A stretch of 64,000 nucleotides of DNA from an uncultured Opitutus sp. (lineage in GTDB: Bacteria > Verrucomicrobiota > Verrucomicrobiia > Opitutales > Opitutaceae), in NCBI GenBank assembly GCA_964504885.1, contig CAZDGC010000020.1, positions 3,552 through 67,551 on the forward strand. The letters run 5' to 3'. Of the stretch, positions 1 to 5,125 are shown piece by piece. Position numbers and translations under genes: made by a program. The notes under the pieces were generated by a model, which was given only the letters and a program-made list of their open reading frames with translations, was not told where the DNA came from and ran no database searches. Position 1 is the stretch's first letter. Each line of letters opens with the position of its first letter.

Positions 1-144
1 CGATCCGCTGATGTCGCCGTGGTCTTTGTCGAGCCCTACGAAGGCCGCACCATCTTTCGTGAAATGCCGCTCAACGAACGTGGTGAACTCGTGAAGGCCT
101 GGCCCGGTGGGTTTTTCGAGGAGGATCTCGACGAGATGTTCTGA
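1..144 (+). CDS. C-terminus of AAA/ABC-type ATPase with DUF3696-like tail (5'-truncated by window)
   Basis: Not in the ORF track. Frame 1 reads RSADVAVVFVEPYEGRTIFREMPLNERGELVKAWPGGFFEEDLDEMF-stop. The G-x4-WPxGFF ending is typical of DUF3696, found at the end of AAA_15/AAA_21 ATPases. Confidence 0.7.
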   Translation, partial: RSADVAVVFVEPYEGRTIFREMPLNERGELVKAWPGGFFEEDLDEMF

Positions 145-148
145 CGCC

Positions 149-1102
149 ATGCTCCACGAAATTGCCATCACCCCGAGCGTGTTCTACCGCGAGACCTACG
201 CGCATCCGAACGTATGCGACGCCCACATGCAGGGCATTCGTGAGGCGCTCCTGGAATACCTGCTCGTGCGGGACCTGCGCAGCAGCGCTTGGCAAACCGA
301 ACTGCTGTCGAAATTCGGCGAGATGACCGCTCCCGCCAAAGAACTAATCAAGAAGTGCATCAAGCGAGGGAGGTTTCGGACGTTTCCCAGTGCGATTGAG
401 GAGGCCCCCATCGATGCCGCCGGGTGGTGTCGTGAAGCTCTGGCGACATACCAACAGGAGTCCATGGCTGGAATTCTAGCATGTCCGACCGGCAAGGCGG
501 CTTACGCAGGTGAACCGTTGGTTGCCTCCGTCGAGAGACACACCGGCGCAGGCTGGTGGCAGCAGTGCGTAACGAGTTGCCATCCCGACGGGCCGCGTGT
601 TCCGCGAACCACTCGCGCCTACTTGGATCGCCTTGGGAACATACTGCGTCACGCGAAACACATTGCCTTCACCGATCCCCACCTGGATCCAAGTCGCGCA
701 GGTTACCGCGAATTTTTCGAATTACTCAAAGCGACAGCACGACCTCACGGACCAAAGGCACTGGTCGAGATTCATCGCGTGCGTTATGTAGGGTCAGGCT
801 CCAGTCGCACTTTTCCAGAAAGAGCGGAATGGGAGCAGCGATTTCGGAGCACACTAGACTCCGCACTGGCAGCGGTCGGTGTGAGTGTGGAGGTGTTCAT
901 TTGGAATGAAGAGCACGACCGACATCTGATCTCCGACCTCCTCGGCCTGCACGTTGGCAACGGTTTCGACACCACTACCGCTCCAAATGCCGTCTCAACC
1001 TGGACGCGTCTTTCGTCCCGGGATCGCGACAGCGTTCAGCGTTCGTACGATCCACAAGCCCGTTCTTCCTCTCTTTACCACCGATTCAACATTGGAGCAT
1101 GA
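149..1102 (+). CDS. Hypothetical protein with C-terminal PLD-like (DP..HDR..G.GFD) putative nuclease domain
   Basis: ATG 4 nt after the upstream stop (MLHEIAITPSVF). Motifs FTDPHLDP, VEIHR and EEHDRHLISDLLGLHVGNGFD. Codon usage is less GC-biased than the flanks. Confidence 0.65.
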   Translation: MLHEIAITPSVFYRETYAHPNVCDAHMQGIREALLEYLLVRDLRSSAWQTELLSKFGEMTAPAKELIKKCIKRGRFRTFPSAIEEAPIDAAGWCREALATYQQESMAGILACPTGKAAYAGEPLVASVERHTGAGWWQQCVTSCHPDGPRVPRTTRAYLDRLGNILRHAKHIAFTDPHLDPSRAGYREFFELLKATARPHGPKALVEIHRVRYVGSGSSRTFPERAEWEQRFRSTLDSALAAVGVSVEVFIWNEEHDRHLISDLLGLHVGNGFDTTTAPNAVSTWTRLSSRDRDSVQRSYDPQARSSSLYHRFNIGA

Positions 1103-1121
1103 GGAATCCACCAACACACCC

Positions 1122-1793
1122 ATGATTGAGGCCTCACGCGTCTCCAAATCCTACGCCACGCCTGCCGGCCCCGTGCCCGTGCTGCGCGATCTCGATCTGC
1201 GCGTCGCGGCCGGCGAGTCCGCCGCCATCGTCGGCCCCTCCGGCAGCGGCAAGACCACGCTCCTCAACCTCCTCGGCGCCCTTGACCAGCCCACCTCCGG
1301 CTCCCTCCGCATCGACGGCGCCGAACTCGCCTCGCTCGATCCCGCGGCCGCCGCCCGCTTCCGCAACCGCACGATCGGCTTCGTCTTCCAGCTCCACTAC
1401 CTCCTGCCCCAGTGCACCGTGCTGGAAAACGTCCTCGTCCCCCGCCTCGCCGGCGGCTGGGAGGAGGACGCCGCCACCACCCGCGCCCGCGCCGAGGCCC
1501 TGCTCGCCCAGGTCGGCCTGCAGGACCGCCTCGGCCACCGGCCGTATCAACTTTCCGGAGGCGAACAGCTCCGCGTCGCCATCGCCCGCGCCCTGATCAA
1601 CCAGCCCAAGATCATCCTGGCCGACGAACCCACCGGCTCCCTCGACTCCGCCACCGGCGAACGCATCGCCGATCTGTTCCTCCGCACCCAGGAGGCCGCG
1701 CGCGTCGCCCTTGTCGTTGTCACCCACCACCCGGGCCTCGCCCGGCGCCTGCACCGCACCTACCGGCTAGTCGACGGGAGGCTGGAGGGATGA
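1122..1793 (+). CDS. ABC transporter ATP-binding protein, LolD/MacB-like
   Basis: Walker [29 protein letters not shown]. Start taken at MIEASRV. Confidence 0.93.
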
Positions 1794-4700
1794 CTCCCGC
1801 GCGCTATCTGCTCCGCAGCCTGGTGCATCACCGGTACGCCCACCTCGGCGTGCTGGCCGGCGCCATCCTCGGCGCCACCGTGCTCCTCGGCGCCCTCTTC
1901 GCCGGCGATTCCGTCAAGGCCTCGCTCCGCCAGCTCGCCGAACAACGCACCGGACGCGCCACCCACGTGCTCACCTCCGGCGACCGTTTCTTCCGCGAGG
2001 CCCTCGCCGCCGACTTCGCCGCCGCCGCCGGCCCCGGCGTCCGCACCGTTCCCGCCATCCTCACCCGCGGCACCGCCGTGCACGCCACCACCCAGGCCCG
2101 CGCCCACGCGGTGCAACTCGCCGGCGTCACCCCCGCGTTCTGGGAACTGGCCCCACGGCCCGCCCGCGTCGCGTTTCCCGCGGAGGACGCCGTCATCATC
2201 AACGACACCCTCGCCCGCCGCCTCAACCTCGCCCGCGGCGACACCGTCGTGGTGCGTTTCCCCAAGCCCGGCATCCTCGCCGGCAACGCCCCCATCGCCG
2301 GCGGCGAAACCACGCTGCAAACCCTGCGCGGCACGGTCGCCGCCATCGTCGGCGACACCGGCTTCGGCCGCTTCAGCCTCGATGGCACCCAGCTTCCGCC
2401 CGCCACCGTGTTCCTGCCGATCGCGCGCCTGCAGCAGGCCCTCGATCAGCCGGCCCGCGCCAACCTGCTCCTGATCGAGCGCGGCCCCGCGGGCACGGCG
2501 GGCGCGGCCACCGATCTCGCCGCCGCGCTGGGCCGCGCCGTGCAGCTTGCCGACTACGGGCTCGCCCTGCGCTGGCTCGAGACGCCCCGCGCCTTCGAGC
2601 TCACCTCGACGCGCATCTTCCTCGACCCCGAACTCGACGACGCCGCCCGTGCCGCCTGGCCGGACGCACAGCCGGTGACGTCGTATCTGGTCAACGAATT
2701 CAAGGTGCGCGACCGCACCGCGCCCTACTCGATCGGCACGGCGACCACCCCCGGCGCCGCGCCGTTCCTGCCCGCCGACCTCGGCCCGCGCGAGCTCGTG
2801 CTCAACGACTGGCTCGCGCAGGACCTCGCCGCCGGCGTCGGCGACACCGTGCGGCTCGCGTATTACCAGGCCGCGGACGGCGGCACCCTGGTCGAACGCA
2901 CCGCGGAATTCCGCGTGCGCGCCGTCGTCCCCCTCGCCGGCCTCGCCGCCGACCGCGCCTGGATGCCCGAGTTTCCCGGCATCACCAACACCGACAGCCC
3001 GCGCGAATGGAACCCCGGCCTGCCGCTCGACCTGACGCGCATCCGCGATCAGGACGAAAAATACTGGGACGATCACCGCGGCGCGCCCAAGGCTTTCCTC
3101 TCCCCCGCGGCCGGCCGCGAACTCTGGTCGACGCGCTGGGGCACGCACACCGCGCTCCGCGTCGCCGCGCCGCGCGAACGCGAAGCGGAACTCTCCGCCG
3201 CGCTGCGGCAGGCCCTGCGCCCGGAGATGAACCAGCTTCTGCTGCGCGACTTCGGCGCCGCCGCGGTCGCGGCGGCCGCCCCCTCGGTGGATTTTGCCGG
3301 GCTGTTCGTGGGCCTGAGCTTCTTCCTCATCCTCGCCGCGCTCGGGCTGGTGGCGCTGCTCTTCCAGTTCTCGCTCCTGCAGCGCAACCGCGAGGACGCC
3401 CTGCTCGGCGCCGTCGGTGTCGCGCCGCGCGCCGTGCTGCGCTGGCGCCTGCTCGAAGGAGGCACGATCCTCCTGCTCGGCGCCGCCGCCGGACTGCCGC
3501 TCGCCGCGCTCTACACGCGCGGCATCCTGCGTTTTCTCGCCACCATCTGGTCCGGCACGGGCGGGGGCGCCGCCTTCGCCTTCGCCGCGGGCCCGGCCAG
3601 CCTCGCCGCCGGCCTCGGCGGCTTCCTGCTGCTCTCCCTCGGCGCCATCTGGCTCGCCGCCCGCCGGCTCGCGCGCCGCGCCCTCTCGATCCGGCTCGCC
3701 GCCAGCGCGGAGGAGAGCGTCGCCAGCGATCGGATACGACAGAACTCCCGCCGCCTGGCCGCCGGCGCCGCTTTCGCGGCGGCCGTGGCCGTGGCGCTCT
3801 CCGGGCGCGGTCTGCCGGCCCAGGTCGCGTTCTACCTCGCGGGCTTTGCGCTGCTCGTGGCCGGCCTCGCGCTGTGCCGCGCCTGGCTGGCCGCCGCGCC
3901 CGCGGCCGGCGCCGCCGCTGCGATCGACCCCGCCACCCTCGGCCTGCTCAACCTCAAGGCGCGGCGCACACGCAGCCTCACCGTCGCCGGCCTCATCGCG
4001 ACCGCGGTCTTCATGGTGCTTTCCGTCGCGTCGTTCCGGAAGCAGATCGGCAGCGACTGGCTGGAGCGCGGGAGCGGCACGGGCGGATTTGCGTTCTGGG
4101 TCGAGACCACCGCGCCCCAGAACCCGGCCCGCGACGGCACCGACGGCCGCTTCGAGATCTTCACCGCGGCCGCCGCCGACCTCGGCGCCGTCGTCCCGCT
4201 GCGCGCCGGCGCCGGCGACAACGCCAATTGTTTCAACCTCAACACCACCGCCCAGCCGCAACTGCTCGCCGTCGATCCGGCGAAGCTCGCAGGCCTCCAG
4301 GCGTTCCGCCCGCGCGTGCCCGACCGTGGCCACGAGCGTGCGCGAGTGGACGCCGCCGCTTCCCCCTGGTCCCTCCTCCGCCCCGCACCGGGAGGCGACG
4401 CTCCGCTCCCGGCCTTCGTCGACGCCACGACGCTCCAGTGGGCGCTCAAGCGCAAGGTGGGCGACCTCCTCACCTACACCGACGAAAACGGCCGCGCCTT
4501 TGCAGTGCGCATCGCGGGCACGCTGGCGGACTCGGTTTTCCAGGGTTATCTCCTCGTCGACGAAGCGGCCTTCCTCGCGCGCTTCCCATCGCACGCCGGG
4601 TATTCGGTGTTCCTCGTCGACGCGAAGGATCCCGCTAAGATCGCCGCTCTTCAGCCGCGCCTGCAGGCGGCGGCGGGCGACGCCGGCGGGCGGGTCGACA

Positions 4701-5125
4701 CCACGCGCGACGTGCTGGCGGCGTTCCACCGGATCGAGAACACCTACATCGCGATCTTCAATGTGCTCGGCTCGCTCGGCGTCGTGCTGGGCAGCCTTGG
4801 GCTCGCGATCGTCGTGGCCCGCAACCTGCGCGAGCGACGCGGCGAATTCGCGGTGATGGCGGCCATCGGCATCCCGTCCGCCGTGCTCGGCCGGCTGGTG
4901 TTCGCTGAATTCAGCCGTCTCGTGTTCTGGGGCCTCGCCATCGGCGCCGCCGCCAGCGCCATCGCCGTGTTTCCCAACCTCGCCGGCCTTCCGCCGGCCC
5001 CCACGCTCGCCCTCGTCGCGGCGCTCCTCGCCGGCATCGTCGGGCTCAACCTGCTCAGCGGCTGGCTCGTCTTCCGCTGGTCCCTGCGCGATCTCCGCCC
5101 GGCGCTCGCCCAGGGCGCGGAGTGA
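1790..5125 (+). CDS. ABC transporter permease, duplicated FtsX/MacB type
   Basis: ATGA overlap with the ATPase gene. Two FtsX-like TM blocks (QRNREDALLGAVG, ERRGEFAVMAAIG). Confidence 0.88.
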   Translation: MTPARYLLRSLVHHRYAHLGVLAGAILGATVLLGALFAGDSVKASLRQLAEQRTGRATHVLTSGDRFFREALAADFAAAAGPGVRTVPAILTRGTAVHATTQARAHAVQLAGVTPAFWELAPRPARVAFPAEDAVIINDTLARRLNLARGDTVVVRFPKPGILAGNAPIAGGETTLQTLRGTVAAIVGDTGFGRFSLDGTQLPPATVFLPIARLQQALDQPARANLLLIERGPAGTAGAATDLAAALGRAVQLADYGLALRWLETPRAFELTSTRIFLDPELDDAARAAWPDAQPVTSYLVNEFKVRDRTAPYSIGTATTPGAAPFLPADLGPRELVLNDWLAQDLAAGVGDTVRLAYYQAADGGTLVERTAEFRVRAVVPLAGLAADRAWMPEFPGITNTDSPREWNPGLPLDLTRIRDQDEKYWDDHRGAPKAFLSPAAGRELWSTRWGTHTALRVAAPREREAELSAALRQALRPEMNQLLLRDFGAAAVAAAAPSVDFAGLFVGLSFFLILAALGLVALLFQFSLLQRNREDALLGAVGVAPRAVLRWRLLEGGTILLLGAAAGLPLAALYTRGILRFLATIWSGTGGGAAFAFAAGPASLAAGLGGFLLLSLGAIWLAARRLARRALSIRLAASAEESVASDRIRQNSRRLAAGAAFAAAVAVALSGRGLPAQVAFYLAGFALLVAGLALCRAWLAAAPAAGAAAAIDPATLGLLNLKARRTRSLTVAGLIATAVFMVLSVASFRKQIGSDWLERGSGTGGFAFWVETTAPQNPARDGTDGRFEIFTAAAADLGAVVPLRAGAGDNANCFNLNTTAQPQLLAVDPAKLAGLQAFRPRVPDRGHERARVDAAASPWSLLRPAPGGDAPLPAFVDATTLQWALKRKVGDLLTYTDENGRAFAVRIAGTLADSVFQGYLLVDEAAFLARFPSHAGYSVFLVDAKDPAKIAALQPRLQAAAGDAGGRVDTTRDVLAAFHRIENTYIAIFNVLGSLGVVLGSLGLAIVVARNLRERRGEFAVMAAIGIPSAVLGRLVFAEFSRLVFWGLAIGAAASAIAVFPNLAGLPPAPTLALVAALLAGIVGLNLLSGWLVFRWSLRDLRPALAQGAE

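Follow-up and report, generated by a model that had tools for sequence, protein, structure and literature searches.

The window analysed here is a 64,000-nt stretch of contig CAZDGC010000020.1 of an uncultured Opitutus sp. (GCA_964504885.1; G000:C20:3552-67551). It opens with the 3' end of one gene and, immediately behind it, a complete gene for a 317-residue protein. The original prediction took the two for a DUF3696-tailed ATPase and a PLD-like nuclease effector, forming a defence system that might be an undescribed variant. The locus thus raises the questions of what the two proteins are, how they are related to known ATPase-controlled nucleases such as Menshen, and what the pair does in the cell. 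In our main reading, to which we give a probability of roughly 0.68, the pair is an ATPase-gated PLD nuclease that provides back-up, abortive anti-phage defence.

The locus and its probable operon

Both predicted frames were found again, namely the ORF tail at 1..144, the 4-nt gap, the ATG at 149 and the 317-aa ORF ending at 1102, together with the motifs DPH (residues 176-178), IHR (208-210), HDRHL (256-260) and GNGFD (270-274). The upstream part of the ATPase gene, which lies outside the window as had been stated, was retrieved from the same contig (Table 1). The lower GC3 of both genes is also confirmed: the 317-aa gene has a value of 0.62 and the complete ATPase gene one of 0.76, compared with 0.91 for the downstream permease gene and a genome median of 0.86 (2,731 long ORFs). 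Total GC is 0.58-0.60 over positions 1..1200 and 0.72-0.76 over 1201..2400. At the edges of this island no clear attachment repeat was found (longest common word 9 nt), nor was a tRNA gene found near them. Straight after the island, positions 1122-5125 hold an ABC transporter ATPase of the usual kind, high in GC (Pfam ABC_tran), and a large permease-like ORF. A profile search detected the effector in 0 of 60 relatives, 36 of which belong to the same genus; on this ground, with the low GC3 also counted, the module is accessory. The sequencing runs in which at least half of the module's words occur come from bioreactor or sludge metagenomes (four rows, three studies, one possibly the source). 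In the RNA run X12, short identical pieces lie over hsdR, hsdM and the 3' end of the effector gene at a depth of 2-4, and these contigs may be DNA.

Of the upstream partners that had been suggested, type I RM genes are present, with hsdM and hsdS directly before the ATPase gene. A DUF262/ParB gene was sought in the same place and none was seen; hsdS is there, and PF03235 (DUF262) was not found in the genome, which is 94% complete. A second contig, C29, ends with the genes for a 495-aa activator, a 93-aa ORF, hsdR and the 5' part of hsdM. The hsdM pieces of C29 and C20 align to residues 3-169 and 246-502 of one homologue, without overlap, and the other two hsdM genes of the genome are whole. 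Because the pieces are complementary in this way, we infer one operon in the order activator, small ORF, hsdR, hsdM, hsdS, ATPase, effector; the C29 segment is probably its front, and the operon ends at window position 1102. No bridging contig was found among the contigs listed. In the hsdM piece on C29, a TAG lies 77 nt short of the contig end. Two runs gave contigs with G at this place; these have a depth under 5 and show further differences too, so that a contig-end error is likely.

Table 1. Features of the locus. Plain ranges are window positions; C20 and C29 are contigs of the source genome (G000).
Feature	Position	Strand	Basis or remark
ATPase gene, 3' end (47 codons, DUF3696-like tail)	1..144	+	Frame-1 ORF, ends WPGGFFEEDLDEMF
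Whole NsnB-like ABC ATPase, 539 aa	G000:C20:2076-3695		Starts 1,476 bases before the window
NsnC-like effector gene, 317 aa (PIN-like and PLD-like)	149..1102	+	Family, model pLDDT 95.6, fold matches
PIN-like domain (residues 1-144), to which the ATPase tail is predicted to dock	149..580	+	SMG5 PIN match; co-variation with the tail
Single-motif PLD-superfamily domain, MITD1 type, residues 145-317	581..1099	+	VIA-align; ESM Atlas neighbours
D176, behind strand 2 of the PLD domain, predicted to be the catalytic acid	674..676	+	Conservation
H256-D257-R258, HxR equivalent of the PLD HxK motif	914..922	+	Conservation
hsdS, intact	C20:834-2051		Outside the window, directly precedes the ATPase gene; PADLOC Specificity_I, E 2.9e-86
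hsdM, 3' half	C20:1-837		Outside the window, upstream of hsdS
Activator, sigma54-like site, 93-aa ORF, hsdR, 5' hsdM	L201:11839-17808 = G000:C29:55838-61807

The ATPase and the effector

The ATPase has GANSVGKST as Walker A, a GxG signature (GAG), VVEQPE as Walker B and ETHSEH as H-loop, and its residues K36, G406, G408, E430, Q431 and H465 are kept in 60 of 60 aligned homologues. Its best PADLOC match is PDC-M55A (E 3.8e-41), followed by NsnB (1.4e-40) and HEC-03B (1.3e-33). The description as a DUF3696-tailed AAA_15 ATPase holds, with one qualification: the NsnB model extends over the tail and one homologue passes the DUF3696 cut-off of Pfam with 27.6 bits, but the score of the ATPase itself (14.9 bits, E 0.032) stays under that cut-off of 22.

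The effector has no match in Pfam, PADLOC or NCBIfam, and no PDB relative was found at the sequence level. Its AlphaFold2 model, made from 118 sequences (pLDDT 95.6), consists of two domains. In VIA-align, residues 145-317 match MITD1 (2ymb) with Z 10.8 and rmsd 3.1 over 131 aligned residues; SauUSI (Z 10.0), NucT (9.6) and Nuc (9.2) are further PLD-domain matches, and phospholipases and phosphatidylserine synthase (10.7-10.8) are level with MITD1. Going by their titles, we take the best 19 rows to be PLD-fold entries. The model thus supports the PLD fold proposed for the HDR protein, and among the ESM Atlas neighbours MIT_C is found in 17% and 83% of members. The N-terminal ~150 residues had been said to match nothing recognizable. 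This stands for the sequence databases but not for structure, since about 145 residues form a PIN-like domain in the model: residues 1-144 match the SMG5 PIN domain (2hwy; Z 8.3, rmsd 3.3, 107 residues aligned over residues 3-142), and many more PIN/VapC entries match at Z 5.8-7.5.

D176 is D in 118/118 sequences of the A1 alignment and D or E in 70/70 of the wider A5 alignment; H256 is H in 117/118 and 68/70, and R258 is R in 118/118 and 70/70. Because the middle residue of HDR varies (the commonest five of 70 in A5 are D 48, N 14, E 4, A 2 and V 1), the predicted motif is HxR. It stands in the place of the canonical HxKxxxxD motif, which the effector lacks, as in MITD1-type domains. In the PIN-like domain, the position where we would expect the first catalytic Asp is T8 (111/118), while E4 (D/E in 100%) and E96 (100%) are conserved. 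Searches gave 246 relatives at E<=1e-3, and the family falls into 304 clusters (50% identity) with E<=1e-30 as the limit and into 1,699 with E<=1e-3. Judged by its sequences, the effector ORF represents a genuine gene family. Conservation of the pair extends over many phyla; no effector relatives were found in 72,556 plasmids or in viral contigs.

Genomic contexts, the activator and tandem arrays

Neighbourhoods were analysed in a genome set (80 of 111 matches kept) and a metagenome set (80 of 235 kept), the latter being a divergent effector subfamily (profile-profile probability 99.2%) that was scanned with alignment A6. The predicted tight linkage is evident in both: an ATPase homologue was called in 77/80 genome loci, two of the other three starting at a contig edge and one holding a fragment only, and it adjoins the effector gene in 63 of the 64 metagenome loci with at least 400 nt upstream. 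The gap between the genes is -46 to +6 nt in 95 of 101 adjacent pairs, with a 1-nt overlap in 66. Where genome loci have room upstream (68), the neighbours are type I RM in 29 (hsdS directly upstream in 13, intervening genes in 16), a CARF-sigma54 activator in 28 (directly upstream in 27, within four genes in one) and others in 11. The RM loci bear out the expected defence context, and five of them show an activator upstream of hsdR, the same order as that proposed for our genome. Two lineages supply 25 of the 27 direct-activator loci (18 Vicinamibacterales, 7 Latescibacterota). The 39 metagenome loci with at least 3.5 kb upstream hold RM in 30 and an activator in six. Elsewhere, the same slot behind hsdS is filled by OLD-Toprim, Kiwa, YhcG and SIR2 defence genes. 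In a cyanobacterium (L187:1863-7844), the pair has a CRISPR RAMP gene on one side and, on the other, a WYL-like gene on the opposite strand. Transposase genes lie inside or next to those for the activator, the ATPase or hsdM at many loci, namely L032, L048, L071, L073, L075, L079, L080 and L081, which suggests frequent inactivation of these operons.

The N-domain of the C29 activator is a CARF domain: it exceeds the Pfam cut-offs of both RtcR (E 8.8e-8) and Csm6_CARF (2.2e-7), and each of these models is matched by 15 of 21 activator members at E<=1. Its top Foldseek match is Csm6 (6tug, TM 0.74). Against NCBIfam RtcR the activator scores 311 bits over residues 39-486, short of the cut-off of 650. 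It has the CARF domain, sigma54 AAA+ domain and HTH of the RtcR-like CARF-sigma54 activators. Instead of GAFTGA, 17 of the 28 activators with a readable motif have GAFSGA and four have GAFSNA or GTFANA; that of our genome has GSFTGA. No RtcA or RtcB was found among 209 proteins scanned from homologous loci, a subset of their genes.

With TGGCACG-N4-TTGC as the sigma54 consensus, a site with at most one mismatch lies just after the activator stop in 26 of 37 search windows, a count that kin inflate, compared with 11 of 878 behind other genes and 0 of 37 on the antisense strand. The metagenome set, which is independent, gave 7/8 (three near-identical) against 0/103. The site in our genome has two mismatches, including the -12 C, and is equalled by 102 of 3,000 random windows (3.4%); it sits just upstream of the 93-aa ORF. 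ORFs of 93-94 aa between this site and hsdR (L201:13466-13744 and L010:806-1087, 53% identical) belong to a cluster also present in L014 and L025. The 93-aa ORF has no Pfam or PDB match; its start, IIDGDTF, reminds us of thermonucleases. The rpoN gene (PF04552), present in 29/30 relatives, was not found in our assembly and is probably unassembled. The activator is like the RtcR-like activators that head defence superoperons and have been proposed to sense cyclic-phosphate RNA ends (PMC4012209, PMC11090510): these too have CARF, AAA+ and HTH domains and stand first in operons that include type I RM. The passages on them concern RM systems and CoCoNuTs, whereas here the activator often leads straight into the ATPase-PLD pair or into arrays, and the sigma54 site was counted against controls.

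Tandem ATPase-effector arrays with two or three effector genes occur in 21/80 genome loci. In the 16 arrays with complete motifs, the paralogous ATPases are 53-96% identical around Walker A and 35-45% in the tail behind the H-loop, and the effector domains are 17-29% identical; in L024 and L043 the two ATPases reach 93-96% around Walker A. Over 76 of 101 pairs, whose pairwise identities are not independent, effector identity correlates with tail identity at a Spearman coefficient of 0.79 and with identity of the ATPase core parts at 0.30-0.38. One tail cluster goes with 56/57 effectors of the window's type and with 0/19 others. The ATPases of divergent effectors cluster according to host lineage, and a test on a quick tree rejects their forming a single clade (p-AU 5e-7). 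Because the tail tracks the effector while the ATPase bodies follow the host lineage, tail and effector appear to have moved together onto a resident ATPase body at least twice. The tail would be the docking site for the effector, for which the co-variation is the best evidence. Some array ATPases measure 780-800 aa from just before Walker A to the end (L020:8964-11441, L027, L031:5404-7992, L060), exceeding their paralogues by 160-260 aa; this variable insert could be a sensing domain.

Relation to known systems and proposed mode of action

Both proteins have counterparts in Menshen. Like NsnB, the ATPase combines a GxG signature, an altered Walker B and a DUF3696 tail. The effector, by described architecture, is like the inPIN + PB-PLD1 type, one of 15 NsnC effector types; the computational description of this type includes an HDR motif and an acid following beta2 (Li et al., 2025; PMC12065111). 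For PB-PLD1 the published Z against MITD1 is 11.4, versus 10.8 for our effector. Two NsnB DUF3696 tails were predicted to sandwich the inPIN domain, and AlphaFold3 models of NsnB with NsnC docked the N-domain of NsnC on DUF3696 in 23 of 24 cases (PMC12065111). The association with type I RM is shared as well. Nevertheless, there are clear differences: the pair here lacks NsnA (ParB-DUF262 + ParBDB) and has hsdS upstream of the ATPase instead, its ATPase has 539 aa against about 375-460 in the collected NsnA-linked rows, and it has a CARF-sigma54 leader and tandem arrays. Since NsnA, which defines Menshen, is missing, the system is, on gene content, not Menshen. In none of the 107 homologous loci with enough upstream DNA does an NsnA gene precede the ATPase gene. 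Two DUF262 profiles built here, which detected 39/40 other DUF262 loci as a positive control, found none in 81 genome loci (our own and 80 others, up to 8 kb on each side, 12 with little upstream DNA). Of the 80 metagenome loci, 39 of which reach at least 3.5 kb upstream, none has a DUF262 gene before the ATPase gene. Downstream, a DUF262 gene of ~600 aa occurs in 2/80 metagenome loci, in one of them (L252) adjacent, as in PDC-M55.

A quick IQ-TREE tree of the ATPases (LG+G4, SH-aLRT support only) included 67 of 92 rows, with near-copies and one truncated and one frameshifted row left out. All 35 rows of PLD-partnered ATPases form one group (SH-aLRT 99), and 8/9 NsnA-linked ATPases (100), HEC-03 (99) and PDC-M55 (93) form the others; the branching order among the four is unsettled. 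A WP..FF-like tail closes most rows in each of the four groups. On the simplest reading, a DUF3696 ATPase and its PIN-fold partner make up a general unit of two genes, and Menshen is this unit with a sensor added. The PADLOC NsnC model PDLC03880 matches 2/118 (A1) and 15/70 (A5) members weakly (best E 7.8e-8), in three family loci through model positions 118-225, its C-terminal half. Searched with this model, 251 + 251 + 5 + 12 genomes gave no NsnA-linked PLD-type NsnC; they yielded two unrelated PLD proteins in RM loci, three family members and one chance match. In two genomes (L165, L166; L180, L181), hsdM and hsdS are separated by genes for proteins of ~300 aa that end in an HDR-type PLD domain. 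Their N-terminus resembles, in our judgement, ORF6N, and they may represent a second route of MITD1-type domains into type I RM loci.

Two other ATPase systems were considered and rejected. HEC-03, an ABC ATPase with a PIN protein, needs both genes for defence (Payne et al.; bioRxiv 2024.01.29.577857). It shares the two-gene form, an ATPase match that includes the tail, a PIN-fold partner and embedding in other defence systems. Its partner, however, is a short VapC-like PIN (159-position model) without room for a PLD domain, such as our effector carries; no HEC-03 model matches the effector or the A1 and A5 members, and our ATPase falls in a separate group. PDC-M55, the PADLOC candidate with the best ATPase match, has a partner of similar length (315 positions), but one without an HDR-type motif or a match to our effector profiles, and the effector does not match PDC-M55B. 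We regard the motifs of the PDC-M55 partner as Toprim-like. A DUF262 gene follows in most PDC-M55 loci; in L167-L178 the order is ATPase, 315-aa partner and ~560-aa DUF262 gene, a permuted Menshen-like arrangement. PrrC sits inside type I RM operons. PARIS, Septu and PrrC/RloC, the ATPase-gated nucleases described in PMC12065111, are also alike in that an ABC ATPase controls a nuclease, but their effectors are Toprim, HNH and HEPN, and they have no DUF3696-PIN docking.

The suggestion of an undescribed variant has to be divided. The effector type was described for Menshen NsnC, and the ATPase and effector parts are known; the arrangement appears new. The Menshen loci were collected through DUF262 only (PMC12065111), and therefore NsnA-less pairs could not be in its set. 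A full-text literature search found no NsnA-less pair of DUF3696 ATPase and PIN-PLD protein, although an earlier mention is possible in classification papers or the Menshen supplement. As far as searched, the NsnA-less two-gene form, the CARF-sigma54 context and the exchange of tail-effector cassettes are undescribed.

In the reading that we prefer, the ABC ATPase would hold the PIN-like domain of the effector through its C-terminal DUF3696 tail and, on infection, would release or pair the PLD domains, so that nucleic acid is cut and the infected cell is stopped. The single-motif PLD domain would dimerise to form one active site, as is established for Nuc-type enzymes. The likeliest trigger would be a phage protein that inactivates the adjacent RM system, or else an altered ATP level, detected by the ATPase itself as in PARIS-type systems. 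We lean slightly towards DNA as the substrate; RNA or tRNA is a strong alternative at somewhat less than even odds, because related ATPase-gated systems have been reported to cut tRNA. This reading is supported by the two folds, the fixed gene pair, the RM and activator contexts, the accessory distribution with low GC3 and the co-variation of tail and effector, and it has published precedents in the NsnB-NsnC models, HEC-03 and DruE. Counted against it are the 11 of 68 loci with neither RM nor an activator upstream, the dependence among the pairwise identities, the two lineages that dominate the direct-activator loci, the mismatched sigma54 site and undetected rpoN of our genome, the unbridged C29-C20 join with the hsdM TAG, and the departures from GAFTGA. 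In activator-led operons, transcription might be switched on by cyclic-phosphate RNA ends, by analogy with RtcR. A more far-reaching proposal, which we hold only tentatively, is that the CARF-sigma54 activator senses such ends, left by first-line defences or by the phage, and induces a polymorphic battery of ATPase-nuclease pairs in which the tail is a swappable key to effector specificity; tail and effector cassettes would be exchanged on the resident ATPase body like polymorphic toxin tips. If true, immunity would have a second line, induced at the level of transcription, with a sigma54 switch in the position that the DNA sensor holds in Menshen.

Several other explanations have to be weighed. 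The pair might be an accessory subunit of type I RM that finishes restriction products or tunes restriction and does not act alone. The position of hsdS here and in 13/68 genome loci, and the RM genes upstream in 29/68 genome loci and present in 30/39 metagenome loci, would fit. We nevertheless consider it unlikely, since the 28 activator-led and 11 other loci have no same-strand hsdM or hsdS within up to 8 kb upstream, one cyanobacterial copy lies beside a CRISPR RAMP gene, and other defence genes fill the same slot behind hsdS. It is also conceivable, but quite improbable, that the PLD domain is not a nuclease at all but acts on membrane lipid, by binding or hydrolysis, or serves as a scaffold without catalysis, as has been proposed for human MITD1. 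The structural matches to phospholipases and phosphatidylserine synthase and the HxR rather than HKD motif speak for this. The model, however, is that of a soluble two-domain alpha/beta protein, and D..HxR is near-invariant even at ~20% identity, which argues for catalysis. Moreover, the MITD1-like PLD domains of DruE, the closest tested case, degrade DNA, and D1740A abolishes both degradation and defence; this PLD pair, with His1999/Arg2001, is a DNase (bioRxiv 2026.05.13.724313).

The pair could finally be an ordinary Menshen system whose NsnA has been lost or acts in trans, and hence a remnant or dependent on a distant sensor. It shares its architectures with NsnB and NsnC, PDLC03880 weakly matches 15/70 wider-family members, some DUF262 gene is found elsewhere in 41/50 host genomes, and one lies downstream in the two metagenome loci mentioned above. 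This explanation is very unlikely, given that DUF262 was found neither in our own genome nor in the 81 genome loci or upstream in the 39 metagenome loci, that the PLD-partnered ATPases form their own group, and that the pair is kept across many phyla.

On the preferred reading, the pair reduces the Menshen core to a minimum of two genes, with which the control of NsnC by NsnB and the need for NsnA can be probed. Its small stand-alone HxR-type PLD domain offers a means to ask whether MITD1/BrxL-type domains are enzymes. The loci also supply named, predicted sigma54 promoters with which to follow up the proposal, computational until now, that defence operons are induced by RtcR-like activators, and they define a family of at least 304 clusters (50% identity) that is barely seen by PADLOC effector models.
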